In this document: positions 1,393 to 29,870 of the stretch, in pieces
Layout: each line of letters starts with the position of its first letter
How positions within the stretch are numbered: position 1 is the first letter of the stretch
NCBI GenBank assembly: GCA_964527795.1
Contig: CAZGOS010000003.1
Span: 1 to 42,997, forward strand
Length of the DNA: 42,997 nucleotides
Reading direction: 5' to 3'
Source: an uncultured Rhodothermales bacterium
GTDB lineage: Bacteria; Bacteroidota; Rhodothermia; Rhodothermales; UBA10348
Translations under genes and position numbers: made by a program
The notes under the pieces: generated by a model
Seen by the model: only the letters and a program-made list of their open reading frames with translations
The model's database searches: none
What the model was told of the DNA's origin: nothing

Positions 1393-1866
1393 ATGAAATT
1401 TCTTTGTGTGAATTGCAACGTACAGATGACTCTCGAAAAATCCCGGGGGCCGGATGACGGGTCTCTCTCGGTCGTATTTGGCTGCTCATCGTGTGGTCGA
1501 AAAATTGCCATGTTGACCAACTCCGAGGAAACCCAGGTGCTGCACTCACTCGGCATCAAGATTGCCGCGAGCGAGAAAGAGGCCGCTCCGATGGAAACGA
1601 ATCGCTCGTCTCCTATGGATAATCCAGGAGCAGCCGAGTCGCTGGAATCCGCCAAAGCAGATCCGACGGATAAAACCAGCGGCGGCGCTATCGACGCTCA
1701 ATCCGAACTGCAGTGGACACCGGAAGCCCTGGAACGGATGGACCGCATACCGGCGTTCGTCCGGGGAATGGTACAGAAAGGGATCGAGGATTATGCAAGG
1801 GCAAATGACATAACACGGGTTGACGAAGCCGTTCTCAAAGATGTGCGCGACGGATTCGGATTCTAA
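1393..1866 (+). CDS. Small Cys4 zinc-ribbon + PCP_red-like domain protein
   Basis: N-terminal CVNC-x22-CSSC ribbon, a low-complexity linker, then WTPEALERMDRIPAFVRGMVQKGIEDYARANDITRVDEAVL. This is the same module repeated three times in the upstream ORF. Confidence 0.6.
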   Translation: MKFLCVNCNVQMTLEKSRGPDDGSLSVVFGCSSCGRKIAMLTNSEETQVLHSLGIKIAASEKEAAPMETNRSSPMDNPGAAESLESAKADPTDKTSGGAIDAQSELQWTPEALERMDRIPAFVRGMVQKGIEDYARANDITRVDEAVLKDVRDGFGF

Positions 1867-1896: not shown

Positions 1897-2604
1897 CTAA
1901 TCATCAGGTTTGAGATCGAATGTAGCGGTCTCCGTCTCACCGGGGCCGACCGTGATCGGCTTCGATTCTCCTTCTAAAGACTCATGCCATACGACCAGTT
2001 CATACGTTCCAGGAGGCACATCCTTTAGCGTGAATTCTCCACTCTCGTCCGTCACCGCATAATACGGGTGCGCAGCCACCACGATAACAGCACTCATCCA
2101 GTTATGGATATCGCACGATACGCGGGTGAAATCCGGAAATCGGAATCTGCGCCCGGCAACTTCCATCTCATTCATGGTCTTGGGCATCGCCAGGTTGACG
2201 GGACGATTGTTCTCAGGCGCTGTATGAAAATTATGGAGAATACCGTCGGAATTGCGCACCTTCAACGCCTGACCAACGGGCAGTATCACAACATGCGGGT
2301 CGAAAACACACCCTTTCTGGTCCAGTACAACGACATCTTCCGTCCGCCATGTCTGCGTCACATCGATTCCTTCCAGGTAGACGATTGCATTTTTCAGGCC
2401 GGACGACTCGCCGTCAACGATGAGTGTCTCATCTGGAATTTCGCTGTCACATGATGAAAACTCGTCGCTGACGGAATGGAAAACCGGTTCAACATCGGGG
2501 CCGTCATAACGGATCGCACCTCTGATCACCGACGTTGTCTGGGCCGTTGAGATCGTCGGAATCACCGCCGAAAGGAATAGGAAAATCAGAATTCGATTCT
2601 TCAT
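1897..2604 (-). CDS. Secreted cupredoxin (amicyanin-spaced type-1 Cu ligands) fused to a CarboxypepD_reg-like beta-sandwich
   Basis: Signal peptide MKNRILIFLFLSAVIPTISTAQ. Candidate Cu ligands are LHNFH upstream and C-D-I-H-N-W-M (C-x2-H-x2-M, the spacing found in amicyanin). The C-terminus YAVTDESGEFTLKDVPPGTYELVVWHE is typical of carboxypeptidase-regulatory-like domains. It is the last gene of a 4-gene minus-strand operon, 14 nt after the porin gene. Confidence 0.65.
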   Translation of the reverse strand: MKNRILIFLFLSAVIPTISTAQTTSVIRGAIRYDGPDVEPVFHSVSDEFSSCDSEIPDETLIVDGESSGLKNAIVYLEGIDVTQTWRTEDVVVLDQKGCVFDPHVVILPVGQALKVRNSDGILHNFHTAPENNRPVNLAMPKTMNEMEVAGRRFRFPDFTRVSCDIHNWMSAVIVVAAHPYYAVTDESGEFTLKDVPPGTYELVVWHESLEGESKPITVGPGETETATFDLKPDD

Positions 2605-2618
2605 TTTCAGCTCGGTTC

Positions 2619-3698
2619 TTAAAAGAAAATATGGAATTGAAACATCAGTTGATCCTGGTTCAGGGGCACATTTTGCGGAATGAATCGGTTGATCCGATAG
2701 AATACTCCGATCTGTAGAAACTGTGTGATAAACGGTTCGATGCCAAAGGTTAAACGATCCTGGCCGTCCAGCGTATTCTTTACGTCCCGACGACGATCAA
2801 AAAATTCGTAGGTCGTCCTGACATTGAAACCGCGCATCGGAAGGAAGTAAAGTTCGACGAAGCCGGCGAACTGTTCCCTCTTGCCAAACCGCATGAAATC
2901 GCCTTCGGCGGCTAAGGTAAATCGTCCAACATTCAGACCGGCGAACATCCCCATTTTGTAATCGATGCTCCCTCGAATATTCTGACTGAACGATCCGCCG
3001 ATTCGAAAGCGTCGAAACAGAATCTGGCCTATGACCGACACCTGATTACGTGTCAGATTGGCCATGACTGAAGTTCTCCCGGGCTCGAAACCGACCTCGA
3101 TTCCCAGATCGTGCTTGCTGTAGGTGAATCCCGTCCTTGCGCGAATAAATGCATCATCGTCGCGCAGTCTGAGCCCGAACGGCAACAGCATACGGCCAAC
3201 TTTCAAATACGAATTGAAGCGCCTGAACTGAATCAGACCGAAGAATTCGCGGTTTTCCGTGCCCGGAGCCAGTGTCTGGTCGACATAGGCCGTAAGCAGA
3301 TCCGGTACCAGGCGGACTGAGAGATACAGATTCGCTTCGGGAATCCGGGAATTCGTTGTCGCCTCGCCTTCTTCACCCTCCGGTGTCGTGTATCGAAGCA
3401 GAGAAATGTTGTCTATGCGCAGGTTGGATCCCACGGAGATCGATCTGCTAAGCCTTCCGTCAAAAAAACTCGCCGACCGGATGGGCTTCATCGCCAGATT
3501 GGTCTGCGAATAGATCACTCCAAAACTGGTCCGTTTGCCTCCTCCCGTCCGATTCACATGGCATTGAGAACACTTTAATCCTGTTCGAAGCGCCATGTAG
3601 GGCTCCGCCTGTGCCGGTTTCGTAATGGGAGCGATCATTCCAATGCAGAAAACCAGGGCAACCGGAATTCGAGTGAATGTTATGTGTGAAACGCGCAT
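2619..3698 (-). CDS. Fused monohaem cytochrome c / outer-membrane beta-barrel (Cyc2-like porin-cytochrome candidate)
   Basis: Signal peptide ending AQA. A single CSQCH motif (nt 3558-3572) lies ~12 aa into the mature protein. The remaining ~300 aa show alternating-hydrophobic amphipathic beta-strand patterns (for example NLYLSVRLVPDLLTAYV, FTLAAEGDFMRF, FNVRTTYEFFD). The terminus is the OMP-type FQFHIFF with a terminal Phe. Confidence 0.6.
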   Translation of the reverse strand: MRVSHITFTRIPVALVFCIGMIAPITKPAQAEPYMALRTGLKCSQCHVNRTGGGKRTSFGVIYSQTNLAMKPIRSASFFDGRLSRSISVGSNLRIDNISLLRYTTPEGEEGEATTNSRIPEANLYLSVRLVPDLLTAYVDQTLAPGTENREFFGLIQFRRFNSYLKVGRMLLPFGLRLRDDDAFIRARTGFTYSKHDLGIEVGFEPGRTSVMANLTRNQVSVIGQILFRRFRIGGSFSQNIRGSIDYKMGMFAGLNVGRFTLAAEGDFMRFGKREQFAGFVELYFLPMRGFNVRTTYEFFDRRRDVKNTLDGQDRLTFGIEPFITQFLQIGVFYRINRFIPQNVPLNQDQLMFQFHIFF

Positions 3699-3707
3699 TG
3701 TTCGGGT

Positions 3708-4214
3708 TCAGTCGTCTAGTGCTCCGGCTTTTATCCACGCAACCAGCCATTCAACCTCTGTTTTGGACACGAACGGCGGTCCATTCGATGGCATGCGGAA
3801 TCCTTTTTTGGGAGCAACGGCTGTGATTTTCTGGACGAGATAACTCTTCACCGGGTCACCGGGAAGAATCCGCAGTCTCGGATCTCGGTCTGGAAGCTGG
3901 AACGACGGCTGCAGGACGAGTGATTTATAGGAGTTGCCCACGGTCAAATCCAGACCGTTCTCCTCGTCCCCGCCTGTATTATTGTATCCGGATCCTCCCG
4001 GCGAATGACAGCTCGCACAGTAGGTATCGAAAATAGGCTGAATCTGGGACGAGAAACCCAACTCATCCAACGGCATTCCGCTTTGGGTCAAACCGAGACC
4101 GTCCCCCTTACACGAGAGCAAGACAGATGCGAGAAGAAATCCGATACCGACCTGGAAACCACGTCCCGAGCCCACCGCTCTCCTCAATATTTTTCCTCTA
4201 ATGAGTAAGCTCAT
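3708..4214 (-). CDS. Lipoprotein monohaem cytochrome c (PSCyt1-like domain)
   Basis: Lipobox VLLSC. IQPIFDTYCASCHSPGG plus the C-terminal EVEWLVAWIKAGA resemble the Planctomycete-type cytochrome c domain. The start overlaps the upstream gene's stop by 17 nt, and there is a 9-nt gap to the porin gene. Confidence 0.7.
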   Translation of the reverse strand: MSLLIRGKILRRAVGSGRGFQVGIGFLLASVLLSCKGDGLGLTQSGMPLDELGFSSQIQPIFDTYCASCHSPGGSGYNNTGGDEENGLDLTVGNSYKSLVLQPSFQLPDRDPRLRILPGDPVKSYLVQKITAVAPKKGFRMPSNGPPFVSKTEVEWLVAWIKAGALDD

Positions 4215-5157
4215 CGTCGTGCATGAAGAGTCGATAGAATAGATTCGGTCTTCTTGCCAGACTTTTTACAAAATACACCAACGACCATTTTCGGCGACTG
4301 TCCAGCTTCTGTGTCTCTGTATTATCTAATAGCTCTATCTCGCGCTCCGTCGGCTGCTTGAGGAAATACGCTTTCAGAGCCTGAATCTCGGCGTCGGAAT
4401 AGGCTTTCCGATAGTCGTCAAGCGTTGAAAGACTATCGCTGCCAAAGAGGAATGCGTCCGCGTAGGATGGCATCGGTGTGCCATCCATACCGGTACTAAA
4501 AGTTCTGAAGATGCTTTCATTGTCGTCTCCGCCCTTATACCCGCCACGCGTGAAGTCGAACGCATCAATTTTTCTCCCCGTGGCGTCCTTCAACGTGCCT
4601 TCCAGATGACCGGACCCGGTTCCGCGTACGCCGTGACACGTCCAGCAGTCCATGAGCATGTACAGATACTTCCCCTCCGCGAAAACGATTTCCGTCACAG
4701 TAGGCTCGGCCGGGATGTGCAACGTTGGTGCAAACTCATCTTCGTCGAAATATGGCGCAAACGCCCTGACGTACGTCGCGACATCGCGCAACTCTCGCTC
4801 ACTCAACAGGTCTCGCCAGGACGGCATCATCGTGCGCGGAACTCCATTGCGGATCGTGCGCATCAGATCATCGACGGTAGGCAGATCGCCTGTAGGCGTT
4901 GACCTGAATTTGAAAACACCGGTCGAAAAATCGCTCGGTCGTGGATCCAGGGCGGCATAGCCGGGACCTTTTCCGTCCCCCTCGTCGCCATGACAGGCTG
5001 CGCACGCGCGTACGTATATATGCTCGCCTCGGCTTCGGGCCAGAGCAGCTTCTATCAAATCAGAAGCGGTGCGTTCAGACGTCCCGGCCGAAGACTGTGC
5101 GATTGCCGGACCGGCAGAGAAAAAGAGCAGGGTCAGACTGGTCAGTATGCTTCGCAT
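4198..5157 (-). CDS. Periplasmic dihaem cytochrome c
   Basis: Two CxxCH motifs (CAACH, CWTCH), each followed by a conserved F-[KR]-x-[FT]-x-x-G-x-x-G-T-P/M-MP-[SA]-[WY] type Met-ligand segment. MRSILTSLTLLFFSAGPAIAQ reads as a clean signal peptide, so I prefer the start at 5157; the longest ORF starts at 5205. It is a paralogue of the N-terminal half of the 11462-13420 protein. Confidence 0.8.
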   Translation of the reverse strand: MRSILTSLTLLFFSAGPAIAQSSAGTSERTASDLIEAALARSRGEHIYVRACAACHGDEGDGKGPGYAALDPRPSDFSTGVFKFRSTPTGDLPTVDDLMRTIRNGVPRTMMPSWRDLLSERELRDVATYVRAFAPYFDEDEFAPTLHIPAEPTVTEIVFAEGKYLYMLMDCWTCHGVRGTGSGHLEGTLKDATGRKIDAFDFTRGGYKGGDDNESIFRTFSTGMDGTPMPSYADAFLFGSDSLSTLDDYRKAYSDAEIQALKAYFLKQPTEREIELLDNTETQKLDSRRKWSLVYFVKSLARRPNLFYRLFMHDDELTH

Positions 5158-5321
5158 CAAGTCGGCTGCCCGTTCGGTGACTCTTGAGCCGGACCTTTGT
5201 CCCATATTGTGCTCACGCTATAGAATTGGTCGAGACGACTACTTTGATAATTGTGCACGATAGAACTCTGGGTAAATCCTTCGCGGGCTTGCCGCGATGT
5301 ACTTGTCGGATGATGCGCGCG

Positions 5322-5463: not shown

Positions 5464-5702
5464 TAATCAACGCATTAAACGAGCGCGATGAACCGGTGCT
5501 TGGGCCGGGTGCGATAGTGCATCTTTCTGCAACGCTGTTCGGTCGCCTCCTTCGGGATCATTTTCTACCTGTTCGTTATGTACAAAACTCAGGTATTCCC
5601 CCACAACATTTGTATTAAGACGGGATTACAATTCTGGGGATGAATCGACTCGAGACATGCTGGTTCACCTGCGTCGACTCCGTGCAACCTTCAGCGCCTG
5701 CC

Positions 5703-6455
5703 ATGCAAGAACATGTAAACCCCGCATCGCCAAACCAACAAATCCCTATTACGGAGAAGAAGGTGTGCACACGCTTTCGCGCAATTCCATCACGTATCTC
5801 GATCGGGATATTACTGGGCTGTACTTTCCTCGCGAGTTGCGATATCGGGCCTAAACACGAGGAGCCTGTAGCCCCTGAAACTCCCTCCCTCACGGCTCCG
5901 CTCGACGGATCCGCTGATCAGCAGAACGCTCTCTATCTGGAATGGACCGAGTCGCCTGTGGCTTCAGCATATCATGTTCAGGTATCCACTCAATCGGATT
6001 TTCTTGATCTGACCGTCGATGACCGAAATATTCTAGTTCCGATTACACCGGTAAAAGATTTGCAGGTCGATTCAACCTACCACTGGCGGGTGAGAGCTTT
6101 TAACGAAGTGGGTTTCAGCGATTGGTCGTCGGCTTGGTCGTTCACGCCTTCATCACCCGCATCGTTTCCAGCCGTTCCACAGCTCGTATATCCGCCAGAC
6201 GGGACAATTGATCTGGGAACCACCGTTGAATTCAAGTGGAGGACTACAAAAGGTTCCAGATTTTATCATATTCAGGCATCTCTGGAACGGGATTTTTTCA
6301 GCAGGGAAGCCGATATGATCGTGGCTGACACGGCACAGTCTGTTTCGGCGCTCGTATATGAGTATTGGTATTACTGGCGCGTGCGGGGACAAAATGCCGC
6401 CGGATATGGGCCCTGGTCTCCTACGTGGTTAATCGTAATCGCGGCCGGCGGATAG
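5703..6455 (+). CDS. Lipoprotein with two tandem Fn3/Ig-like repeats
   Basis: Lipobox FLASC. Two ~95-aa repeats each carry P-x-DG-...-L/F-x-W-...-Y-x-[VI]-Q-[VA]S-...-Y-[HY]-WRVR-[AG]-x-N-x-x-G-...-WS. The start is ambiguous: ATG at 5640 or 5703, or a GTG at 5763 preceded by GGAGAAGAAG that would give a compact lipoprotein signal. Confidence 0.6.
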   Translation: MQEHVNPASPNQQIPITEKKVCTRFRAIPSRISIGILLGCTFLASCDIGPKHEEPVAPETPSLTAPLDGSADQQNALYLEWTESPVASAYHVQVSTQSDFLDLTVDDRNILVPITPVKDLQVDSTYHWRVRAFNEVGFSDWSSAWSFTPSSPASFPAVPQLVYPPDGTIDLGTTVEFKWRTTKGSRFYHIQASLERDFFSREADMIVADTAQSVSALVYEYWYYWRVRGQNAAGYGPWSPTWLIVIAAGG

Positions 6456-6520: not shown

Positions 6521-7861
6521 ATGAAATCATTTCATACAGAAAGAATCCTCTTTGGCGGATTGATATTCGGAATCAGTTTGGCCGGATGCACACTTTCACA
6601 GTCAGAAGTGGACGATACCATTCTGGACGAGCAGTTAATCCAGGTCCTCACAAAGAACGGTGAGCGTACCCTTGCCAATTTCATATTACCGGACAGCGAC
6701 GATTTTTCCTCCATCCCCCAGGATCCGGCAAATCTTCTTACTCTGGACAAAGTAGAGCTGGGTAAGCTACTGTTTCATGAAACCGCACTTGCCACAAATC
6801 CGCGGCACGAGAGCGGAAGGGGAACGTACGCATGCGCGACATGCCATCATGCAGCGGCCGGTTTCCAGGCAGGACGGAAGCAGGCCATAGCCGATGGTGG
6901 TTCCGGCTGGGGTGAGAGAGGTGAAGGACGTACACGGAATGTTGCCTACGAAGTAGAAGATCTGGATATTCAGCCTATCCGGTCTCCTACCATTCTGAAC
7001 ACTGCCTATCAACGAATCACGAAGTGGGACGGCGGTTTCGGCGCACACGGACTGAATGAAGGTACGGAGTCAAGTTGGATTCCCGGCACCGATGCCGCCA
7101 TGAATTGGTTGGGATACGACGGTCTCGAAACACAGGCCATCCGGGGATTGGTTGCCCATCGAATGGGCGATATCGAATCGAGTATCGTAGCCACTCATCC
7201 TACGTACACCGAGCTTTGGGACCGTGCATTTCCAGGTGAGCCTGTTTCGGTTGAAAAAGCGGGATTCGCCATAGCCGCGTACGAACGTACGGTTTTTGCC
7301 AATCAAGCCCCGTTCCAGCGCTGGCTAAGGGGTGAAACCAGCGCCATGTCCCCAGACGAAAAGCGAGGAGCTCTCGTCTTTTTTGGGGATACCGGTTGCG
7401 AGCGCATGTGCCACACCGGCGGCCCTCTCAGTTCAGTAAATTATTATGCTTTGGGAGTGGCGGATATGGAGGGTTCGGACGTTTACGGTGATATTCCTGA
7501 AACGCTGGGTAGAGGAGGTTTTCTTCAGGACCCGGACCAATACTTCATGTTCAAGATTCCACAACTCTACAATCTCAAGGACTCCCCCTATTACGGACAC
7601 GGCGGAATGTTCAGATCCCTTCGGGAGATCGTCGAATATTACAACGAAGCTGTTCCTGCCCGAATCCTTCCTGAAGGGCGCATCAAGAGTACGTTCAAAC
7701 CTCTCGAATTAACGGAGACACAGATTGACAATCTCGTGCTCTTTCTGACGGAATCACTCTACGACCCAAACTTAATGCGCTACGTGCCCGACTCGCTGCC
7801 TTCGGGAAACTGCACGCCGGCAAATGATCCGATTTCTAGAGTTGATCTGGGCTGCGACTGA
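6521..7861 (+). CDS. Dihaem cytochrome c peroxidase / MauG-family lipoprotein
   Basis: Lipobox SLAGC. LGKLLFHETAL...YACATCHHAAAGF is the classic first haem site (nt 6833-6847). FKIPQLYNLKDSPYYGHGGMFRSLREIVEYYN matches the CCP/MauG C-terminal signature. The second haem site reads GCERMCHTGG, which is CX3CH rather than CXXCH (nt 7397-7414). Confidence 0.8.
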   Translation: MKSFHTERILFGGLIFGISLAGCTLSQSEVDDTILDEQLIQVLTKNGERTLANFILPDSDDFSSIPQDPANLLTLDKVELGKLLFHETALATNPRHESGRGTYACATCHHAAAGFQAGRKQAIADGGSGWGERGEGRTRNVAYEVEDLDIQPIRSPTILNTAYQRITKWDGGFGAHGLNEGTESSWIPGTDAAMNWLGYDGLETQAIRGLVAHRMGDIESSIVATHPTYTELWDRAFPGEPVSVEKAGFAIAAYERTVFANQAPFQRWLRGETSAMSPDEKRGALVFFGDTGCERMCHTGGPLSSVNYYALGVADMEGSDVYGDIPETLGRGGFLQDPDQYFMFKIPQLYNLKDSPYYGHGGMFRSLREIVEYYNEAVPARILPEGRIKSTFKPLELTETQIDNLVLFLTESLYDPNLMRYVPDSLPSGNCTPANDPISRVDLGCD

Positions 7862-7984: not shown

Positions 7985-8028
7985 GACCGTTGTTCCGGTG
8001 CTCCACGGCTCTGGAGCGAGGCGAGTTG

Positions 8029-9798
8029 ATGGTAGGGCTAAATCACCGTTTCAGGCGATCACGCCTGCTGTGGTTGGCCCTTCTGGCTGCAATCGCCGTC
8101 GTCACACTTCTAGCAGTGCCGACCGAAGCATTTCCGCAGGAAGCCGTACAGGAAATACCCGCCGATCCCGAATACCGCAGGCTTCCCATGATCGGTAGCC
8201 GCGTCGGTATGTGGGTTGTAGGTCAGCTCCATCTGATGTTCGCGGCTTTCGTACTGGCAGTGCCCCTCGTCTCGCTCATCATCGAGATCGTGGGGCATAT
8301 GAAGAAGGAGAAGCGCTATGACGACCTGGCGTACGAATTCATGAAACTGATGTCGGTATCCTTTTCGCTGACGGCATCGCTGGGAGCACTACTGACGATT
8401 ATGCTGGTCGTGCTGTATCCGAGACTAACGACCTACCTCGTCTCGATCTTTAGCTGGACCTTTTTCCCGTATGCCCTTCTCTTTTTCCTCGAAGCTGTTT
8501 TTCTCTACAGTTATTACTACGGCTGGGGAAAGTTTTCGCCTCGGGTACACATCGCACTCGGAATTGGCCTCAACCTCACCGGGTTGTCCATCATGTTCAT
8601 CGCGAACGCCTGGCTGACGTTCATGAATACGCCCGGCGGCATCTCCGAGACAGGGGCGCTCGTGAACCTGTGGGATGCTATTAATAACTATACCTGGATG
8701 CCCATCAACATCCACCGAACAATTGCCAACGTTGCTTTTGGCGGTTCGATTGCGGCTGCGTACGGCGCATACAAGTATCTCGGCGCCAAAACGCCGGAGG
8801 CCCGCGCCCACTACGACTGGATGGCGTACGTAAGTATTCTCATCGCCATCATTGCCCTCATCCCTCTTCCTTTCGCCGGATATTTACTCGGGAAAGAGAT
8901 CTATGCGTTCTCCCAGTCGCTCGGAATAGCCACCATGGGAGGGACTTTCTCCTGGATCTTCATCATCCAGGGCGTCCTTGTGGGCAACCTGTTTCTGGCT
9001 GCCAACTACTACCTCTGGGTCAGCATGGACCGAATCGAAGGCGCAGAGCGGTATCGGAAATTCATCAAATACCTGCTCGCTTCGATCGCGGTCACGTACA
9101 TCGTCTGGGCGACGCCTCACTCGCTCGTTGCGACGGTTGAAGAAGCGAGGCGGATGGGTGGAGCCAACCATCCGATGCTGAACGTGCTGGGCGTGATGTC
9201 GGCTAAGAATACGGCCGTCAATGTGCTCATCCTGACGACGTTCGTGAGCTTTCTCCTTCACCGACGCAGCGACAAGGAGGCCACCGTGTCATGGGCGCGC
9301 ACCGGTAAGCGCGTCCAGCTTTGGATATTCATCGTGACGACGGTCTTCGTTGTTTTTCTGGGAGTGTACGGGTACTTCGTAGAAGCGCGCGTTCGAATCG
9401 CCTTCTCGATTCCACAGGTCCTGTCGGTCCTCCTGGCAATGATATCGGTAACGGTAATCGACATCTATCTGTTCAGAAACGCCAGGAAGCGCGGTTCGAT
9501 TCGATGGGGCGAAATGCCGGCCCGGGCGCATTACGTTCTTTTCTTTCTGGCCGTCACCTATGCCTGGACGATGGGCATCATGGGATACGTGCGCGGGGCG
9601 ATGCGGCAGCACTGGCACGTGTACGGGGTGATGGCGGATACGTCTCCGGACGCATTCACGCCTTCGATCGGATATGCGTCGGTCGTCACGTCGGTGACGG
9701 TTTTCATCTTCTTCGTCTTCATCGTATTCGTATTCTGGTTGGCGGGTCTCACCGGGCGAAAACCCTGGGAGTCTACCGAGGAGGAGTCAACGGCATGA
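8029..9798 (+). CDS. Cytochrome bd-like oxidase subunit (CydA homologue lacking the Q-loop; extended C-terminal TM region)
   Basis: CydA signatures by eye: a TM1 His (VGQLHLMFAAFVLAVPL), LFFLEAVFLYSYYYGWGK (compare E. coli FFLESTF..FGW), ANAWLTFMNTPGG (compare ANGWMQNPVG), and a TM5 His (NIHRTIANVAFGG). The segment where the quinol-binding Q-loop sits in CydA is only a few residues long (YLGAKTPEARAHYDW). Several extra TM helices follow and no cydB-like gene is present. GAGG lies 8 nt before the ATG at 8029; the longest ORF starts at a TTG at 7990. Confidence 0.75.
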   Translation: MVGLNHRFRRSRLLWLALLAAIAVVTLLAVPTEAFPQEAVQEIPADPEYRRLPMIGSRVGMWVVGQLHLMFAAFVLAVPLVSLIIEIVGHMKKEKRYDDLAYEFMKLMSVSFSLTASLGALLTIMLVVLYPRLTTYLVSIFSWTFFPYALLFFLEAVFLYSYYYGWGKFSPRVHIALGIGLNLTGLSIMFIANAWLTFMNTPGGISETGALVNLWDAINNYTWMPINIHRTIANVAFGGSIAAAYGAYKYLGAKTPEARAHYDWMAYVSILIAIIALIPLPFAGYLLGKEIYAFSQSLGIATMGGTFSWIFIIQGVLVGNLFLAANYYLWVSMDRIEGAERYRKFIKYLLASIAVTYIVWATPHSLVATVEEARRMGGANHPMLNVLGVMSAKNTAVNVLILTTFVSFLLHRRSDKEATVSWARTGKRVQLWIFIVTTVFVVFLGVYGYFVEARVRIAFSIPQVLSVLLAMISVTVIDIYLFRNARKRGSIRWGEMPARAHYVLFFLAVTYAWTMGIMGYVRGAMRQHWHVYGVMADTSPDAFTPSIGYASVVTSVTVFIFFVFIVFVFWLAGLTGRKPWESTEEESTA

Positions 9799-10652
9799 AG
9801 CTCAGCGTCAGAATTATCGTCTTCGTGACTCTTTCGATCGGATTTTACATGTATATAGGCCTGATTGTCCCGCAGACAACGATCTACCCTCCAGAGACTG
9901 CCGATCTTCGTAGTGATCTCACACCGGCAGAGCTGGCCGCAGCGGGAGAGGATATCGTCGCCGGAAAAGGCACCTGTCTGGTCTGTCATGCAATCGGAAA
10001 GCTCGAAGCCGCGCTACGCTATCCCGATCTCGGAAACATAGGTTCCGTCGCGGCATCCCGAGTCGACAGCCTCTCGGATGTGGCCTATCTCGCCCAATCG
10101 CTCTACGAGCCGGACTTATTCATCGTCGAGGGTTTCCTGCCCGGAATGCCTCCAGTCGATCGCCCCCCCATAGGTTTAACGGACGGCGAGATTCTGGCGG
10201 TAATCGCCTACATGCAGAATCTCGGCGGAGAGCCTTCGGTAACGCTGCAGACAAGGCTGCATTACCAGTCTGATTCGGTTCAGGTTGTCTTGCCGGAAGC
10301 GTCAACGTCTCAAGAAGAGATCACCAGAAGCCGAACGCCCCAACCGACGGGACCGAGAGGATCTCGCCTGTTCGTAAACTACTTCTGCACCACGTGCCAC
10401 CTGGTTGACGCTCCGAATCCAATCGATCCGGAAACGCCGCCCCTCAGAGGACCAAGCCTGTACGATGTCGGTTCCCGGCTATCCAGAGCGGCACTTTATG
10501 AGGCGATACTGGAACCGAACCTCAATCTCTCGGAGGGATACGAGGCCGATATAATGACTTCCACGCTCATTCCGAGTGGATTCTACGACGAACTGACTCC
10601 GGTTGAACTGCGCGCTCTTGTCGATTATTTGGCAACACTCACGGGTGGCTAA
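9795..10652 (+). CDS. Membrane-anchored dihaem cytochrome c
   Basis: The ATG overlaps the upstream stop (ATGA) and GAGGAGGAG lies 8-9 nt upstream. There is an N-terminal TM helix (IIVFVTLSIGFYMYIGLIV) and two CxxCH motifs (CLVCH, CTTCH). The 443-aa track ORF starting at 9321 is an out-of-frame extension through the upstream gene. Confidence 0.8.
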   Translation: MKLSVRIIVFVTLSIGFYMYIGLIVPQTTIYPPETADLRSDLTPAELAAAGEDIVAGKGTCLVCHAIGKLEAALRYPDLGNIGSVAASRVDSLSDVAYLAQSLYEPDLFIVEGFLPGMPPVDRPPIGLTDGEILAVIAYMQNLGGEPSVTLQTRLHYQSDSVQVVLPEASTSQEEITRSRTPQPTGPRGSRLFVNYFCTTCHLVDAPNPIDPETPPLRGPSLYDVGSRLSRAALYEAILEPNLNLSEGYEADIMTSTLIPSGFYDELTPVELRALVDYLATLTGG

Positions 10653-11465
10653 GTGAATCTTTTCATCATTCTCGGGATCGTTGGCGGCCTGATCGCGCTC
10701 AGATTCTTAAAGCCGAACCCTTTGTTGAGGGCTCTGGTCTGGTTGCTCGCCAGCTATCTGGGCCTTCGTTTCGCACCGGATCCACCGTTGCCGTCGACGA
10801 TCGTTTCGATGTTCATGGCCATCATCGCGCTGTGCCTGCTCGCCTATCTGACAGCAACGAAGGAGCGAATGCAGGATGCTGTGAGTCGGATCTCTGTTTT
10901 TCTTCTCGATCGGCGATTTGTCATTCCTCTGGTACTGCTGCTCATCGGGCTGCCCGTCCTGGTCGCAACACGAGTATATGTTAATGCCACGAGCGATCCT
11001 TCACCGCCGATTTCGGTCAGGACCGTGCATCCGCCTCCTCCAACTTCGATCTCCTTCAGGGATACGGAGATTGACCTCATCGCTGGGGATAATCCGTACC
11101 GTGAACTGGAAACGAGCAATCCCGAGGCATTTCAAGACCACCTCGAAAACGGACTTCGGGTCTATTACGAAAACTGTCTGCTTTGTCACGGATCCGAACT
11201 CAATGGGGACGGCCTCTTCGCCCACGGGCTGGATCCTATCCCGACAAATTTCAGAGATGCAACAACGATAGCCATACTGCAGGAGTCCTACCTTTTTTGG
11301 CGTATTGCCAAAGGCGCGCCGGGTCTTCCCGACGAGTCAACACCCTGGTCTTCGTCCATGCCGGCATGGGAGCCGTTCCTGTCCGCGGAAGAAATCTGGG
11401 ACGTCATACTCTTCCTCTACGATTACACCGGCCAGAGGCCGCGAGCCGTGGTGATCCCAAAATGA
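10653..11465 (+). CDS. Polytopic (~3-4 TM) monohaem cytochrome c
   Basis: The GTG start directly abuts the upstream TAA. Hydrophobic helices sit in the N-terminal 110 aa. The C-terminal class-I cytochrome c domain reads YYENCLLCHGSELNGDG...SSMPAWEPFLSAEEIWDVILFLYDY (CcoP/ActE-like flavour). Confidence 0.75.
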   Translation: MNLFIILGIVGGLIALRFLKPNPLLRALVWLLASYLGLRFAPDPPLPSTIVSMFMAIIALCLLAYLTATKERMQDAVSRISVFLLDRRFVIPLVLLLIGLPVLVATRVYVNATSDPSPPISVRTVHPPPPTSISFRDTEIDLIAGDNPYRELETSNPEAFQDHLENGLRVYYENCLLCHGSELNGDGLFAHGLDPIPTNFRDATTIAILQESYLFWRIAKGAPGLPDESTPWSSSMPAWEPFLSAEEIWDVILFLYDYTGQRPRAVVIPK

Positions 11466-13420
11466 GAGCGCTACTCCTGTCGATCGGTCTGGCCGCGCAC
11501 GTCTTCTCAGCAGACGCGCAGGATATCGATCTGGGTACGGACACCCAGCGCGGATCCGGCCGGCTGCTCTACGAGATAAAATGTGCGCAGTGCCACGGTG
11601 TCAAGGGAGACGGGGTGTCTCCGGGAAGTCCGTATCTCAGGCCCGGGCCCCGGGATTTCACGTCCGGGATCTACAAATTCAGGACGACGGAAAATGGAGA
11701 GATCCCTTCGGATGAGGATATCAAGCGCAGTATCCGAAACGGAATGCCGTATACGAGCATGCCGGCGTGGCCGTCGCTCAGCGACGATGACGTCACGAAC
11801 CTGATGTACTACCTGAAGACGTTCTCAGAGGACTTTATCTACTTCGGAGACGCGGTTTCCTTCGAAATTCCAGATCCCCCTGAAATCACTGCAGAGTCCC
11901 TCGCACGCGGCCGGGACGTTTACGTAGAGAATCAGTGTACCGACTGCCACGGAAACCACGGCCGAAGCAACGGAATATCGTCCCCAACGCTAAAGGACAT
12001 GTGGAATTCGCCCATCAGGGCGACAGATATGACCATGCGATGGACGTATCGAGGCGGTACGTCGCGGAAGGACATCTACAGGACGTTCACAGCCGGGATA
12101 GACGGAACTCCCATGCCTGCCTACAAGATCGAACCGCTGGAAGATCGATGGCACCTCGTGAACTACGTGGCATCACTTTCCGAGGTTGAGTCCGACTATG
12201 GCACGGTGGTCAGGGCGGTTCGGGTCCCCGACACGCCCGGCGATGCACTCTCTCCGGCGATGTTCAGGAGCGCTCCTCCCACGATGTTTCCTGTGGTGGC
12301 GCAACTCATCGAGCCCGGGCGTTCCTTTTTTCCAGCTGCTACAGCCATCGAAGTCCGGGCCGTCGTAACGGGTGAACACGTCGCCGTGATGCTCCAGTGG
12401 AATGACATGAGCGCTCAGGTTACCGGTTGGAACGATCCGAAGATCGACGTACCGCTGTGGCTGGAAGATTCGGACACAACTGAGGTCTTTTCAGATGCAG
12501 TCGCCGTGCAGTTTCCGTCGAGTACCGAATCGGGCCTGCAGAAGCCCTATTTCCTGTTCGGGGATATCAAACGGCCCACGGACATCTGGTTCGCGGATCT
12601 CTCGGAAACGGAGCCGTGGCACTACATAGGACGAGGAACCGGGTTGTTGCAGATCGGAAGCACGCCCCTTGACATGTGGTCCAGGTGGGACGACGGACAG
12701 TGGACGGTCATATTCCGCCGGGCGCGCATCGAGATGGACCACGCCGCTTTTGAAGAAGGTCGATTCGTCCCCATAGCCTTCTCCGTATGGGATGGATTCA
12801 GTCGGGAGAGAGGCAACCGGAGGGGCGTCACGTCGTGGTATAATCTGTACGTGCAGCGGGCAGACGACGGATCTCCAATTCCGAGCATGCTCATCCTGGG
12901 TCTACTGACGCTGATGGCCGGTGTCGTCGCTGCGATCCGTCTTCAGTGGAAATTTCTGGGTGACGATTCACGCGGCAACGTATTGAGAGAGAACGAATAC
13001 CTGTTGCGCAAATGTCCAATTAGCCGGCCTCTGAAAAGAATAATCCGTCGCGAGGGCCTGACTATCGGTATCAAGGACTATCGAAAGCTGAGAGAAACGC
13101 AGCCCGACACATATAATTTCTCACCTGATGAGCTGATCAAAATCAGCGACTCATACCTCCGCGCGGGCAACGTCGATGCAGCCCTCGCTTTTCTGCACCT
13201 TAACCTCGAAACACACCCACACGATGTCCCGGCGCTGGATCACGTCGGACATGCCTACATGCAGGCCGGGAAACCGGACCAGGCCACCGCTTTTTATGAG
13301 AAATCAGCCGCGCTGAACCCGGAAAGATCGATGGGTAGGCTTATTCTGGAAGCGCGCAGACGTGGAGATCGGAACAGCAAACGTATAGTGATTTCCCCTA
13401 TACATTACCGGGCAGTATAG
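11462..13420 (+). CDS. Dihaem cytochrome c + EB_dh/DOMON-type (ethylbenzene dehydrogenase gamma-like) domain + TM helix + TPR tail
   Basis: The ATG overlaps the upstream stop (ATGA) and is followed by the signal peptide MRALLLSIGLAAHVFSADAQ. Haem motifs are CAQCH and CTDCH. The middle region (EVRAVVTGEHVAVMLQWND..., AVAVQFPS..., KPYFLFGD..., DIWFADLS, GQWTVIFRRA, FSVWDGFSRERGNRRGVTSWYNLYV) reads as an EB_dh-type domain. A single TM follows (MLILGLLTLMAGVVAAI), then a TPR-like tail (YLRAGNVDAALAFLHLNLETHPHD...YMQAGKPDQATAFYEKSAALNP). The track ORF start at 11183 is an artefactual extension. Confidence 0.7.
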   Translation: MRALLLSIGLAAHVFSADAQDIDLGTDTQRGSGRLLYEIKCAQCHGVKGDGVSPGSPYLRPGPRDFTSGIYKFRTTENGEIPSDEDIKRSIRNGMPYTSMPAWPSLSDDDVTNLMYYLKTFSEDFIYFGDAVSFEIPDPPEITAESLARGRDVYVENQCTDCHGNHGRSNGISSPTLKDMWNSPIRATDMTMRWTYRGGTSRKDIYRTFTAGIDGTPMPAYKIEPLEDRWHLVNYVASLSEVESDYGTVVRAVRVPDTPGDALSPAMFRSAPPTMFPVVAQLIEPGRSFFPAATAIEVRAVVTGEHVAVMLQWNDMSAQVTGWNDPKIDVPLWLEDSDTTEVFSDAVAVQFPSSTESGLQKPYFLFGDIKRPTDIWFADLSETEPWHYIGRGTGLLQIGSTPLDMWSRWDDGQWTVIFRRARIEMDHAAFEEGRFVPIAFSVWDGFSRERGNRRGVTSWYNLYVQRADDGSPIPSMLILGLLTLMAGVVAAIRLQWKFLGDDSRGNVLRENEYLLRKCPISRPLKRIIRREGLTIGIKDYRKLRETQPDTYNFSPDELIKISDSYLRAGNVDAALAFLHLNLETHPHDVPALDHVGHAYMQAGKPDQATAFYEKSAALNPERSMGRLILEARRRGDRNSKRIVISPIHYRAV

Positions 13421-13474: not shown

Positions 13475-13873
13475 ATGGCTTTAGAATGGAAGGATGAATT
13501 CGACTGTGGTGTGGCAGAGGTAAACGAACAACACCAACAGCTGGTTGGGCTACTCAATTCTTTGGAGCAAATGATTGCTGATGGGATTGAGAGTGGTCCT
13601 AAGGTGGACAGTCTGCTCAGCTCGCTGGCGTCTGATGCAGTGGCGCATTTCTCGTTTGAGGAAGGGTGCATGGCGCGCTACAATTGTCCGGCAGCCCGGT
13701 TAAACAAGGAAGCACACGCCCAATTTTTGGAGATCTTCGGGGATTTCCAGCGCGAAATTGAGGAAAACGGATCGAATGCACCGCTGCTCAAGAGACTACA
13801 CGAGACGGCTGAGGGTTGGATTGTTACACATATACTCAATGTGGATGTCCAGTTGAAACCGTGTGTTCACTGA
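13475..13873 (+). CDS. Bacteriohemerythrin-like protein
   Basis: WKDEFDCGVAEVNEQHQQLVGLLNSL is the hallmark N-terminus. HF..EE, H..F and H....D ligand segments are present. AAGGGAG lies ~9 nt upstream of the ATG, 54 nt after the oxidase operon. Confidence 0.8.
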   Translation: MALEWKDEFDCGVAEVNEQHQQLVGLLNSLEQMIADGIESGPKVDSLLSSLASDAVAHFSFEEGCMARYNCPAARLNKEAHAQFLEIFGDFQREIEENGSNAPLLKRLHETAEGWIVTHILNVDVQLKPCVH

Positions 13874-16792: not shown

Positions 16793-18841
16793 TTAGAACA
16801 AAATGTTGACACCGCCTTGAAACGTGCGACCGGATCCCGGATCGAAATAGCGACGACTTCTCGAATTGATCGTGACCGAGGTCACATATTTCTCGTTGAA
16901 CAGATTGTTCACCTGCACGAACGGACGGATCATCGCCGATCCCGCGGATATGCCTGAATGCGATAGATTTACATCAGCCAGCGAATAAGCATCCGTTCTC
17001 GCCGTATTTGCATCGTCCACGAAATAAGAATCCACGAATAACATATTGAACTGCAGCACCATATTTCCCGGTGTCATGACTGCCGAGAAAGTGAGCTGGG
17101 TCTCCGGAACACCCGGCAGACGGTTTCCGTCAAGCGGCTCTTCCCTGAACTCAAATCTACCCCTCGTGAGCGCAGTACCCAGTTCTACATCGGGCGCGGG
17201 AACCCAGGAAAAAGAAGCTTCGATGCCGACGTGAATGTTTTCGCCCCCGTTTCGAAAAAAGGTTCGTTCGCCACCCTCTTCGGTCTGAAAGGCGACGAGA
17301 CGATCCTGAACGATCAAACGATAGACGGCTATGTCGGCAGCAAATCCCGTGTCATTCTTTCTGGTTCGAATTCCCGCTTCCACTCCCACGGTTCTCTGGG
17401 CATCCAGATCCGGATTGAATCCCCCCGTCAGATCAGGGCGATTCACCAGTTCCGTCGTTGTCGGTGTTTCGAAGGCAGTGCCCACATCGGCATAGACGGT
17501 TGCGCCCGGCAACTGATACGAAAATCCAAGAACCGGACTGAACGCCTGAAACGTGCGTTTACCGGACTGATCACCATTAAGAAGAAGATCGTCTTCCATT
17601 TTGAATCGAACGTAGTCAAACCTCGCCCCCGCGACGAACCGAACTCGATTGGAAACGGAATACGAGAATACGGAGCGAACCGAGCCGTTCAGCACACGCT
17701 CATTCTGATCCAGTTTTAGATCGGTCCCCCGCCCCCCTTCCACCGTATTCCAGTTCTTGCGCTTATCCGATTGAAATCGAATGTCAGCACCGACGGCCAG
17801 TGTCAGCCGAGACGCCGGCGTCTGCAATGATACATCCGCGCCACCCGCTTGTCGGTCAAGGTCAATGAAGGCAAAAGGAAGGGGATTTCGGAGAGCCCGC
17901 CTGATCCAGTGCGCCGACACGGTCACCAGGCCAAAACCCGTCTGCTGAAGAAAATCTGTTCCCAGTTGAACCTGCCGGCTCTCCTTGCCGGCTTTCTGCC
18001 TCTTGAAGAACGCGCTGGCGAGCGTGGGATCCGCCTCATATTCGACCCTGGTCAGCGAGCCCGGATGGTCTGCGCGTTGATCAGCCGCCGCACCCCTGAA
18101 ATTCAGAACTGAAGAAGATCCCACGTTAAAACGAGCGAGAAGCGCTCCCCGGGTGAATCGTCCTGAACTATGATCGCGGTATCCGTCGCGTGATATGGAC
18201 GATGCATATACTTTGATCCGGTGCTTGTCCAACCGGAGATTAGTCTCACCGACCGCCTGCATGAGCCCATCCGATCCTGCCGAGAGACGTACGCGCGTGG
18301 CATAGTCGTCTCGATTTCTACTCGTCGACAGAAAAAGGGCTCCGCCACTCCCGTTTCCCCAGAATACCGATACCGGACCGCGAATGAGTTCGGCCGACGT
18401 AATCATGCCCGGATCGACGATGTCGGCGATAGACTGTCCATCGGGCAGCGTGAGAGGGATACCGTCGAGAACGATCTGAACACCACGAACACCGAACGGT
18501 GCGCGGCTGCCCATTCCTCTTACTATGAGCCGCTCACCAACGGCAAAATGGTTGCGATCACTCAAGAACAGGCCCGGAATTCCGCGCAGGGTCTGCTCGA
18601 GTGATGTGCCGGGCGCCGTATCGACGATCTGCTGCGGTCGCCGTATCGAGACAAGAGAGAATGGTGATGTTGCTTCCGTACCGAGTCCCCGCGTGGCGGA
18701 TACCCGAACTTCCGGAAGCGCAACGTGCACGGAATCCTGTGCAAATACAGGCAACGGCGTTGCCGGCGCCAGACCGGATACGATCAAAGCGACCGAAAAG
18801 GCGCGATAATATGCACGGGGCAGTTTCGTTCGGAAACACAT
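16793..18841 (-). CDS. TonB-dependent outer-membrane receptor
   Basis: Signal peptide then a plug domain (PEVRVSATRG...SLEQTLRGIPGLFLSDRNHFAVGERLIVRGMGS...GVQIVLDGIPLTLPDGQ), a long beta-barrel and a terminal ...GGVNILF. The start is uncertain (18841 or 18865); the longest ORF (18928) would overlap the rodA 3' end. Confidence 0.85.
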   Translation of the reverse strand: MCFRTKLPRAYYRAFSVALIVSGLAPATPLPVFAQDSVHVALPEVRVSATRGLGTEATSPFSLVSIRRPQQIVDTAPGTSLEQTLRGIPGLFLSDRNHFAVGERLIVRGMGSRAPFGVRGVQIVLDGIPLTLPDGQSIADIVDPGMITSAELIRGPVSVFWGNGSGGALFLSTSRNRDDYATRVRLSAGSDGLMQAVGETNLRLDKHRIKVYASSISRDGYRDHSSGRFTRGALLARFNVGSSSVLNFRGAAADQRADHPGSLTRVEYEADPTLASAFFKRQKAGKESRQVQLGTDFLQQTGFGLVTVSAHWIRRALRNPLPFAFIDLDRQAGGADVSLQTPASRLTLAVGADIRFQSDKRKNWNTVEGGRGTDLKLDQNERVLNGSVRSVFSYSVSNRVRFVAGARFDYVRFKMEDDLLLNGDQSGKRTFQAFSPVLGFSYQLPGATVYADVGTAFETPTTTELVNRPDLTGGFNPDLDAQRTVGVEAGIRTRKNDTGFAADIAVYRLIVQDRLVAFQTEEGGERTFFRNGGENIHVGIEASFSWVPAPDVELGTALTRGRFEFREEPLDGNRLPGVPETQLTFSAVMTPGNMVLQFNMLFVDSYFVDDANTARTDAYSLADVNLSHSGISAGSAMIRPFVQVNNLFNEKYVTSVTINSRSRRYFDPGSGRTFQGGVNILF

Positions 18842-18902
18842 TCGACACCATATTCGGAAATGCATTCGCAGTTGAACCTTCGATTCGATATACGAGTGGA
18901 AC

Positions 18903-25300: not shown

Positions 25301-25509
25301 ATGGTGGCGTGGCATGGACAGCCGATGAGGCACCCAACCTGGTATTTACGACAGAACCCACGGTCGATCGCATTCCGGTGTTCAGCACGGGCGTATCCAC
25401 ACGATTCAACATGTTCGGATACACGGTCCTCGAAATCTTTTACGCAAAACCCTTCCAGCGACCGGATAAAGGCGCGCATTTTGGTTTCCAGATCATTCCC
25501 GGCTGGTAA
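22390..25509 (+). CDS. Three-module envelope protein: HExxH (MA-clan-like) peptidase domain + TolB-type PD40 beta-propeller repeats + Omp85/surface-antigen-type C-terminal barrel
   Basis: HELVHSFQYD lies in the N-terminal domain. There are five or more PD40 repeats (SPDGQYVAFLS, WSPDGQRFAF, WSPDGRTIAF, WSPDGRTLAFV, FSPDGRNLYF). The C-terminal ~400 aa carry Bac_surface_Ag-like motifs (ASMEFRIPLLG, FVDGGVAW, ...FGFQIIPGW). Confidence 0.7.
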   Translation: MKRKTERIDVWTKHALGAIILMFIAVALAVPDPALAQYFGRNKVQYDSFEFQSFETDHFEIYLYPEEERAVRDAARMAERWYERHTRSFLREFFERKPIIFYANDADFQQTNAIGGSISEGIGGVTESLKERVIMPLTGSYRETDHVLGHELVHSFQYDIGLSRTDSILFSMQYLPGWLIEGMAEYFSVGREDPHTAMWMRDAAIRDDLPTIRQITTDASYFPYRYGQAYLAYVGGKYGDAAVANLYKLGGRIGLDSAFVYTIGITADSLSTEWISAVKDAYLPLVEGRTPFNEAGHRVLASDIDAGDINISPVVSPDGQYVAFLSEIDLFNINLFIADASTGKVVKKLKGTFRDSHFDSIRFISSAGSWSPDGQRFAFITFVAGDNEISILDWNTGIIEERISVAGVSAISNPAWSPDGRTIAFSGLDGGISDIYLLDLPTKKVTQLTDDRYADLQPAWSPDGRTLAFVTDRGPGGTNFQTLDFAKERLAIMDTETLELNVLRPFDGRHSNPQFSPDGRNLYFISDHDGFKDIYRLALDSEDVFKITNLQTGVSGITSMSPAMSVAMQSGRMMFSVYSDGDYSVFSKEPDELEGSLVQQTQPASPSVAGILPPLRAVDAGLVGNYLNDPLTGLPDDQDFEMSDYNARLKLDYVAPPTIGVSAGGPYGGGLQGGVALFFSDMLGNHNLAIVAQANGTFKDVGAQVQYTNRARRLNYGGSVAHIPILFGGYLAPSIGPDPDGVISEIYGQLRQRIYIDLLQANASYPFTTTRRFEFSAGVTRYGFDYEVDRFFVNQFGVRRERTDLNEMEPDPVYYAQAGLALVSDYSFIGFTSPVRGGRSRLEVTPSIGSQNYVRLLADLRRYIYLKPFTLAIRGLHIGNYGVKDRDDALFTSEYLGYTYGSGFIRGYGFSTFNGLDCLGTSQECLAEQDRLIGTRIVTASMEFRIPLLGTSAFGLIEFPYLPTELTFFVDGGVAWTADEAPNLVFTTEPTVDRIPVFSTGVSTRFNMFGYTVLEIFYAKPFQRPDKGAHFGFQIIPGW

Positions 25510-29817: not shown

Positions 29818-29870
29818 TTGTGTGTTTGCATTGTAGAAATAAAATCGGTCGTTTTTCAGCCCACGGGGCA

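Follow-up and report, generated by a model that had tools for sequence, protein, structure and literature searches.

What kind of protein is specified by a short gene that appears to join a haem c attachment site to an outer-membrane porin, and what might such a protein do? The question is raised by the gene at positions 2619..3698 (minus strand) of a 42,997-nucleotide stretch of DNA, hereafter the window, from contig CAZGOS010000003.1 of an uncultured Rhodothermales bacterium (GenBank assembly GCA_964527795.1). The open reading frame (ORF) has an ATG start and a stop codon at 2619-2621, and encodes 359 amino acids. A sequence-only reading of the window described the product as a compact Cyc2-like fused cytochrome-porin, with two possible origins: a divergent relative of the Cyc2 iron oxidases or an independent invention of the haem-in-porin idea. 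The alignment of both modules to Cyc2, together with a predicted barrel, supports that description. By sequence comparison, the protein belongs to a compact family that is a divergent sister family, a remote homologue of the Cyc2/Cyt572 iron oxidases and not canonical Cyc2; by analogy, it probably serves as an electron conduit across the outer membrane.

The N-terminus has, by inspection, a Sec-like layout of MRVSHITFTR, a hydrophobic core (IPVALVFCIGMIAPI) and TKPAQA, with cleavage predicted between AQA and EP, and residues 1-31 (3606..3698; this and the following gene features are on the minus strand) are the predicted signal peptide. In a 30-sequence alignment the family is variable before A31/E32 and nearly invariant from there (AEPY.A.RTG.KCSQCHVN.TGGGKRT.FG), an abrupt onset of conservation that fits cleavage after AQA. 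A haem-binding segment and linker follow (residues 32-86, EPYMALRTGLKCSQCHVNRTGGGKRTSFGVIY..., 3441..3605), delimited by conservation and by profile alignment (hhalign) to Cyc2. Within this segment the haem c attachment motif CSQCH (C43-H47) is read directly from the sequence at 3558..3572, and C43 comes twelfth after the predicted cleavage. No cysteines other than the two of CSQCH occur in the mature chain, as is also true of 177 of 214 family members. Residues 87-359 (2622..3440) form the predicted 16-strand β-barrel, as delimited by AlphaFold2 strands, Foldseek and barrel-only hhalign. The target ends in ...FQFHIFF, and 175 of the 214 members share the terminal F; a C-terminal Phe is the usual β-signal of outer-membrane proteins. 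The sequence-only reading had placed the signal peptide end at AQA, the CSQCH about 12 residues into the mature chain (nt 3558-3572) and a β-strand pattern with a terminal aromatic behind it. The first is borne out by inspection and by the start of conservation at A31/E32, the second holds in coordinates and position, and the third resolves in the AlphaFold2 model into the 16-strand barrel with its ...FQFHIFF end.

Homologues are numerous. A word-indexed search recovered 285 at 90% clustering, every one of them named "hypothetical", and an exhaustive HMMER search gave 845 clusters at 50% identity (E ≤ 1e-3). A CxxCH motif occurs in all 221 homologues of at least 330 amino acids, as one copy in 218 and two copies in 3, at a median position of about 40. 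Whether homologues keep the motif was a check proposed with the sequence-only reading; its presence in every near-full-length homologue, together with the strong conservation of the haem segment, makes it a family-defining feature and speaks against a fortuitous CxxCH. In the 214-sequence alignment E32, P33, C43, C46, H47, N49, G52, G53, G54 and R56 are at least 95% conserved, and C43, C46 and H47 are invariant. The target has no match in Pfam at E ≤ 0.1 and none in NCBIfam, and the family profile finds no match by sequence in the PDB at E ≤ 10. Carriers with a taxonomic label are metagenome-assembled genomes (MAGs) of Fibrobacteres/Fibrobacterota, Marinimicrobia and Deltaproteobacteria, in addition to the Rhodothermales window. 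We found no description of the compact family in the literature, where incomplete coverage leaves its absence unproven, and it is apparently undescribed so far. The fused haem-porin idea is already known; it is the compact clade that appears to be new. Two architectural variants were seen within the family: three proteins of about 580 amino acids (P0103, P0111 and P0113) have a Cys- and Glu-rich insertion of ~215 residues between haem segment and barrel, and three of 405-413 amino acids (P0230, P0232 and P0247) carry a second CxxCH ~85-95 residues past the first.

An AlphaFold2 model of the target, built with the 30-sequence family alignment, has a mean predicted local distance difference test score (pLDDT) of 78.8 and a predicted template-modelling score of 0.77, with block-mean pLDDT of 79-94 over residues 81-359. 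Sixteen strands are assigned by DSSP, at residues 87-100, 114-131, 135-144, 148-158, 163-171, 196-204, 209-216 and 219-227 for strands 1-8, and at 231-240, 247-257, 260-271, 274-288, 291-301, 312-325, 328-339 and 350-358 for strands 9-16; the sequence-only reading had looked for a barrel of at least ~12. A Foldseek search of the PDB places OprP (2o4v) first (E 2e-12), with OprO seventh (4rjx) and eleventh (4rjw), and with PorB, OmpU and OmpF nearby; the top porins score E 2e-12 to 1e-9 at a query template-modelling (TM) score of ~0.55-0.60. For Cyc2, Keffer et al. 2021 (PMC8406198) likewise give 16 strands and the templates 4RJW and 2O4V. With both termini periplasmic, the extracellular loops of the model are only 2-13 residues long, save for one of 24 residues, and it is these very short loops that account for the small size of the protein.

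The operational definition of Cyc2 used here was taken from McAllister 2020, Keffer 2021 and FeGenie. For comparison with the 214-sequence profile of the compact family, a Cyc2 reference of 89 motif-defined sequences was assembled on the Keffer criterion. Searching metagenome contigs with the motif pattern gave 120 loci, from which were taken 79 complete ORFs with P.FAR[QK][TY]...C..CH, of 395-581 amino acids. A frameshift-repaired Halioglobus protein, used as a query, added a gammaproteobacterial clade. Among the reference sequences, six (L103, L096, L036, L037, L072 and L058) are PV-1-like: they match the haem peptide of Cyc2PV-1 (QTGAACLSCHFQTFPALNAFGR) along with further mass-spectrometry peptides in Table S1 of Keffer et al. 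The Halioglobus gene is itself worthy of a remark. It lies at 4640-4860 (minus strand) of locus L001, in the Halioglobus sp. MAG contig JAXHMT010000003.1, and is canonical Cyc2-like (AMPEFARKYDMT-CTACHAAYP-KLNQFG), but its frame is broken twice within 30 nt by single-base shifts, once in a C homopolymer. These shifts are probably a long-read assembly error rather than the mark of a pseudogene.

Aligned over the whole protein by hhalign, the compact family and Cyc2 match at 98.3% and E 1.3e-14 across 306 columns that span haem segment and barrel. Each module also aligns by itself: the haem segment, without its signal peptide, at 97% and E 1.1e-10 over 36 columns, and the barrel against the Cyc2 barrel at 85.6% and E 5.6e-6 over 230 columns. 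A reversed Cyc2 barrel, as control, gave E 0.61. Deeper profiles were required for this result, as single-sequence or shallow-profile alignments reached 31% and 84% and covered the N-terminus only. Common to both families is the pattern A-x-P-x-(F/M/I/L)-A-x-(R/K)-(T/Y)-x3-CxxCH ... (T/N)-x-(F/Y)-G-x-x-(F/Y). On these alignments the haem-porin fusion is very probably homologous to that of Cyc2.

Convergence on a haem-in-porin design, or a chance CxxCH in an ordinary porin, would have to draw on the generic likeness among 16-strand porins, and Pfam Porin_4 is indeed matched by 2 of 30 family members. The haem segment is less easily accommodated, given its 36-column alignment to Cyc2, when the CxxCH regions of neighbouring cytochromes, used as a second control, align over 8-10 columns only (E 4e-5 to 1e-3); nor is the identical order of the modules, or a motif kept without exception among the near-full-length homologues. 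Since both modules are homologous to Cyc2 and stand in the same order, independent invention is unlikely, and we regard convergence or chance as extremely improbable. Of the two origins offered by the sequence-only reading, then, the divergent Cyc2 relative stands and the independent invention is disfavoured.

Is the protein then simply a short Cyc2 of cluster 1, 2 or 3, with no separate family to be recognized? The architecture and fold template are the same and the N-terminal pattern is similar: a signal peptide (by inspection) and a single N-terminal CxxCH (one copy in 218 of 221 homologues) precede what AlphaFold2 and Foldseek indicate to be a 16-strand porin resembling OprO/OprP. The finer hallmarks are missing. 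Keffer et al. (PMC8406198) describe AXPXFAR[Q/K][T/Y] upstream of CXXCH as "unique to Cyc2" and use it as a filter; P.FAR[QK][TY] is found in none of the 214 members, and the target AEPYMALRT keeps the A, P, A and T positions without FAR[Q/K]. The PXL that lies 4 residues past CXXCH in Cyc2 is likewise found in none of the 214, the target reading CSQCHVNRTGGGKRTSFG, while P-x-[L/F], with its spacing free to vary, occurs in 85 of the 89 Cyc2 reference sequences. The compact family has instead an invariant signature of its own with no counterpart in Cyc2, namely EPY at the mature N-terminus, CH-VN, GGG-(K/M)-R and H356. The minimum length set for Cyc2 is 365 amino acids in Keffer et al. (PMC8406198) and 375 in FeGenie. 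At 359 amino acids the target falls below both, as do 94 of the 214 members for the first and 139 for the second. That characterised Cyc2 proteins are longer, at roughly 430-490 amino acids, had been noted in the sequence-only reading, and this is roughly right, the Cyc2 set ranging over 395-581 amino acids with a median of 456.

As for similarity, the operational definition asks for a blastp E ≤ 1e-5 to a representative of clusters 1-3, or for a FeGenie cluster HMM score above its cut-off. A surrogate Cyc2 hidden Markov model (HMM), built from the 89 motif-defined sequences with the PV-1-like ones included, gives the target 19.7 bits, and the best blastp match has 23% identity over 260 amino acids, with an E of 1.4e-6 in the 89-sequence database that would lie far above 1e-5 at the scale of NCBI. 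Neither Pfam nor NCBIfam supplied a model matching the Cyc2-like clade that was tried. Among themselves the four sampled Cyc2 subgroups align with hhalign scores of 104-224 (E 1e-13 to 1e-29), as compared with 61-71 (E 1e-7 to 1e-8) against the compact family, which by this score falls outside all four, PV-1-like included. The failures of motif and length, with the low surrogate score, argue against membership of Cyc2 as operationally defined, and that the target is merely a short Cyc2 with no family of its own is very unlikely.

Two elements of the barrel stand out in the divergent family. The long extracellular loop, between strands 5 and 6 (residues 172-195, LPFGLRLRDDDAFIRARTGFTYSK, 3114..3185, defined by AlphaFold2 position and conservation), is the most conserved barrel element, with the pattern LLPYG.RL.DD.AFIR..TG.TY; P173, G175 and R177 are at least 95% conserved, and D180, F184 and R186 are 85-95% conserved. 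By its place in the model it is an L3-type constriction loop. General porin architecture suggests that it may form the pore eyelet or a cation site, and in the latter case the conserved R177, D180-D182 and R186 could be the residues concerned. The second element is H356 in the last strand (2631..2633), which is 95% conserved and the sole conserved His beyond the CxxCH; the family alignment contains no conserved Met to serve as sixth haem ligand. Strand alternation, counted from the terminal Phe, would have H356 face the lumen at the periplasmic rim, and together with its conservation makes it a candidate distal, or sixth, ligand of the haem. The Cyc2 set of 89 sequences has no conserved second His or Met and no counterpart of H356.

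What the cytochrome-porin may do is best approached through its neighbours. Four genes are packed on the minus strand of the window, with spacings of -17, 9 and 14 nt. The first encodes a c4-like dihaem cytochrome c of 335 amino acids (4198..5205) with two CxxCH motifs and two Cytochrom_C domains. The second (3708..4214) specifies a 168-amino acid lipoprotein whose C-terminal part is a monohaem cytochrome c domain (CASCH and an invariant MP; Pfam Cytochrome_CBB3 and Cytochrom_C). The porin is third, and directly downstream of it is a gene for a secreted protein of 235 amino acids (1897..2604), with a Pfam CarboxypepD_reg domain and, judged by ligand residues, an amicyanin-like cupredoxin domain. 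In the latter, H124, H127, C164 and H167 do not vary among the homologues, 4 of 5 of which also have M170, as in an amicyanin-type Cys-x2-His-x2-Met loop. The profile of this protein matches PDB amicyanins weakly (E 0.0055-0.02) along almost their entire length, and with the ligand residues this makes the assignment as an amicyanin-like cupredoxin suggestive rather than strong. The lipoprotein cytochrome and cupredoxin that the sequence-only reading named as flanking partners are thus recognizable, the latter by its amicyanin-like site and weak profile match.

Ten loci were compared: the window and nine others with homologues of 40-60% identity, three of the nine being in MAGs labelled Fibrobacteres, Fibrobacterota and Deltaproteobacteria. 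A dihaem cytochrome c of 272-361 amino acids flanks the porin in all ten, upstream in nine and immediately downstream in L128. Some gene lies directly upstream of the porin in all ten, and in each of the nine with readable DNA (the window and eight more) that gene encodes the lipoprotein cytochrome. A core of dihaem cytochrome c, monohaem lipoprotein cytochrome and cytochrome-porin is therefore conserved across the loci, and a cupredoxin-like gene adjoins it in 6 of 10. The C-terminal domain of the lipoprotein always has the MP, with CxxCH in seven of the nine and CX3CH in two; we take it to resemble the planctomycete-type cytochrome c, a resemblance for which no Pfam match was obtained. The CX3CH lipoproteins, with their rare haem-attachment spacing, are found in L129 (8244-9008, CDVGCH) and L130 (8486-9004, CAVTCH). 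A GDG[VI]GL motif lies a few residues past the lipobox Cys in the lipoproteins of the window, L125, L126, L127, L130 and L132.

In five of the ten loci the core is also adjoined by a cluster of genes for a cytochrome bd-like oxidase. In the window this divergently oriented cluster (7990-13420, plus strand) begins with a bd-like subunit I homologue of 602 amino acids (7990..9798; Pfam Cyt_bd_oxida_I, E 1.7e-24), followed on the same strand by three genes assigned by Pfam to cytochrome c (9321-10652, 10653-11465 and 11183-13420). Where the first and third begin is uncertain, as the listed ORFs overlap upstream genes; the third also has EB_dh (haem b) and TPR domains. The clusters in the other loci lie at 1480-6246 in L126, 835-6093 in L127, 1886-7017 in L129 and 11681-16065 in L128. 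Conserved among them are the bd-like subunit I (545-689 amino acids), two or three cytochrome c genes and a protein with cytochrome c and EB_dh domains. Proteins of 270 and ~500 amino acids, the larger with cytochrome c and EB_dh, hold equivalent places in L126, L127 and L129. No homologue of bd subunit II was seen in the Pfam listings of the clusters, which resemble the uncharacterised "TO" oxidases of Nitrospirota.

From the fold, the Cyc2 homology and this neighbourhood a working mechanism can be proposed. By analogy with Cyc2, the cytochrome-porin would probably be an outer-membrane haem c/16-strand porin that takes up electrons and feeds partner carriers and an oxidase. Its N-terminal haem segment would plug the periplasmic mouth of the barrel, and a small soluble reductant would pass the conserved, acid-rich L3 constriction loop into the narrow pore to reduce the haem. 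Fe2+ would be the most probable reductant, with Mn2+ or another species possible; as an assignment of substrate in its own right, Fe(II) is put forward only tentatively, again by analogy. The haem electron would then go to the monohaem lipoprotein cytochrome, the c4-like dihaem cytochrome and the amicyanin-like cupredoxin, and from these carriers to the adjacent cytochrome-c-rich bd-like terminal oxidase. A precedent for pairing Cyc2 with terminal oxidases of the bd-like kind exists in Nitrospirota and "Ca. Manganitrophus" (PMC9040806). We infer haem attachment and position, the direction of electron flow, the substrate and the acceptor. A more specific proposal, somewhat short of an even bet, is that the family forms, with its obligate lipoprotein cytochrome and the c4-type cytochrome, a distinct three-component electron-uptake module that is often wired to the bd-like oxidase, has a bis-His haem through H356 of the barrel wall, unlike Cyc2, and has been missed in largely heterotrophic lineages.

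Several observations weigh against such an electron-uptake role. Because the Cyc2-defining motifs are absent, any function carried over from Cyc2 has a long evolutionary gap to span, and to our knowledge only three proteins have been characterised even within Cyc2. The bd-like oxidases are themselves, as far as we know, uncharacterised, and an oxidase is not adjacent in 5 of the 10 loci. No report of iron oxidation in the carrier groups (Fibrobacteres/Fibrobacterota, Marinimicrobia, Deltaproteobacteria and Rhodothermia) was found in the literature searched. Of the two things that the sequence-only reading hoped to learn from AlphaFold, strand number and haem location, the model yields the 16 strands and has only low confidence for the haem segment, with block-mean pLDDT below 50 for residues 23-78. 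Finally, the NnrS, CCP/MauG peroxidase and hemerythrin genes nearby would be compatible with a role in stress or detoxification as well.

The half of the loci in which no terminal oxidase lies within ~9 kb of the three-gene core also leaves room for electrons to run outward or in both directions, the porin then being an outlet through which periplasmic cytochromes would discharge respiratory electrons onto a soluble acceptor outside the cell (chelated Fe(III), Mn(III), humics or an O2-derived species, for example). A large multihaem, MtrC-like protein with a tail for the type IX secretion system (T9SS), encoded nearby at L124/L125, would suit this direction. Against it, no recurrent association is tighter than that with the bd-like oxidase cluster, an electron sink; the carriers are of a high-potential type (cupredoxin and c4-like cytochrome) typical of oxidative chains; and the characterised relatives are all oxidases (PMC8406198). 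We consider outward or two-way flow unlikely. Rather less probable still is a haem porin for defence or sensing, which would belong to a cluster against nitrosative or oxidative stress and might scavenge or detect NO, H2O2 or O2 at the level of the outer membrane. NnrS in two loci (L126 and L127), and CCP/MauG (6521-7861), hemerythrin (13475-13873) and Usp-domain proteins nearby, are the sort of company it would keep, and a haem without a conserved Met as sixth ligand might be open or weakly ligated. The invariant partners, however, are electron carriers, the dihaem and monohaem cytochromes, rather than enzymes of detoxification; neither CCP nor NnrS is conserved throughout the ten loci, and H356 is a plausible sixth ligand. 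Inward electron flow through the cytochrome-porin is the preferred interpretation.

Other genes of these regions merit brief description. Between the two operons of the window is a gene for a dihaem cytochrome c peroxidase/MauG-family protein (6521..7861, plus strand; Pfam CCP_MauG, E 2.3e-23); neither this nor the fn3-domain protein at 5640-6455 (plus strand) was seen in the other loci examined. NnrS is encoded upstream of the oxidase cluster in both L126 and L127. Proteins with the PCP_red domain (protochlorophyllide-reductase 57 kD C-terminal) recur beside the porin and oxidase clusters, at 21-1280 and 1393-1866 (plus strand) in the window, 9909-14602 in L126, 9938-14734 in L127, and 7047-7442 and 16777-17752 in L128. 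The domain is combined with Usp, rubredoxin-like and radical-SAM/SPASM domains, and such proteins might serve in the maturation of an oxidase cofactor or peptide. A stand-alone hemerythrin (13475-13873, plus strand) lies directly past the oxidase cluster of the window and a ScdA_N plus hemerythrin protein, of the iron-sulfur repair di-iron type, is encoded at 29071-29871 (minus strand); the two are suggestive of O2/NO handling in this part of the genome. A protein of 1039 amino acids (22390-25509, plus strand) has an unusual architecture of PD40/β-propeller repeats and a C-terminal Omp85-superfamily barrel, and the remainder of the window is ordinary chromosomal content. The PBP2 encoded in the window shares 81% identity with the PBP2 of a "Rhodothermia bacterium" MAG and 56-57% with those of Rhodothermus marinus and Rhodocaloribacter litoris. 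At L124/L125, the locus of P0011, the multihaem protein has 925 amino acids (17232-20009, 6 kb downstream of the cytochrome-porin), faint MtrC/MtrF-domain matches and a T9SS Por_Secre_tail; in some lineages it could serve as a cytochrome partner outside the cell.

Microbial iron oxidation is inferred from genomes and metagenomes mainly with Cyc2 as the marker, and the published filters are blind to the compact family, in which the motif is absent throughout and 44-65% of members fall under the length cut-offs. If the cytochrome-porin is indeed an electron conduit, metal oxidation or electron uptake by its carriers would be systematically missed by the Cyc2 pipeline and FeGenie, and more organisms and environments would have to be credited with extracellular electron uptake. 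As a minimal haem-porin of 16 strands, the protein lends itself to structural and mechanistic studies, and it connects the bd-like oxidases, which are poorly understood, with a defined source of electrons in the periplasm. Should it prove not to oxidize metals, it would show where the function of the Cyc2 superfamily ends, knowledge no less useful for annotation.

Among known systems, the closest in architecture is Cyc2PV-1 of Mariprofundus ferrooxydans, of cluster 1, which likewise has a signal peptide, a CxxCH ~12 residues in and a 16-strand OprP/OprO-like porin (PMC8406198); the PV-1-like subgroup aligns to the compact family at 94.9% by hhalign (E 4e-8). Cyc2 proteins of cluster 1 have ~400-460 amino acids and the target, with its very short extracellular loops, 359. 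The Cyc2 PXFAR[Q/K][T/Y] is replaced in the compact family by EPY-x-A-x-R-[TSE] and the PXL by a GGG-[KM]-R insertion, and unlike Cyc2 the family has a conserved His, predicted to face the lumen, in the last strand. Canonical Cyc2 homologues are known in heterotrophs of the Fibrobacteres-Chlorobi-Bacteroidetes (FCB) group (PMC9769843). Another parallel is offered by Cyt572/Cyc2 cluster 3 and by the Nitrospirota pairings of Cyc2 with bd-like "TO" oxidases ("Ca. Manganitrophus", PMC9040806), where genomes that depend on non-canonical bd-like terminal oxidases, equipped with c subunits and periplasmic haem b (EB_dh), also encode a fused monohaem cytochrome-porin. Those genomes have canonical Cyc2, whereas the porin here is of the compact family and in half of the loci its gene lies beside the oxidase cluster.

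The rus operon of Acidithiobacillus ferrooxidans (cyc2-cyc1-cup-coxBACD-rus; PMC10654088) follows the same logic, in that a cytochrome-porin of the outer membrane is encoded alongside a c4-type dihaem cytochrome, a cupredoxin and a terminal oxidase. Its oxidase is of the aa3 type and not, as here, bd-like with cytochrome c and EB_dh subunits; its cupredoxin is rusticyanin, rather than an amicyanin-like domain joined to CarboxypepD_reg, and the sequences are not orthologous; and it lacks the extra lipoprotein monohaem cytochrome that is always found with the compact porin. The best structural matches remain the 16-strand porins OprP and OprO (2o4v, 4rjw; Porin_4), at a TM score of ~0.58 and with the L3 loop in the equivalent place, but these and the general porins have no haem segment and only 9-13% sequence identity to the target. 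The MtrAB/MtoAB/PioAB systems and porin-cytochrome complexes (PCC) also combine a barrel and c-type haem for electron transfer across the outer membrane. These systems use at least two polypeptides, a 26-strand barrel and a decahaem wire (PMC8406198), where the compact cytochrome-porin has one polypeptide, 16 strands and a single predicted haem, with a separate monohaem lipoprotein at its side.

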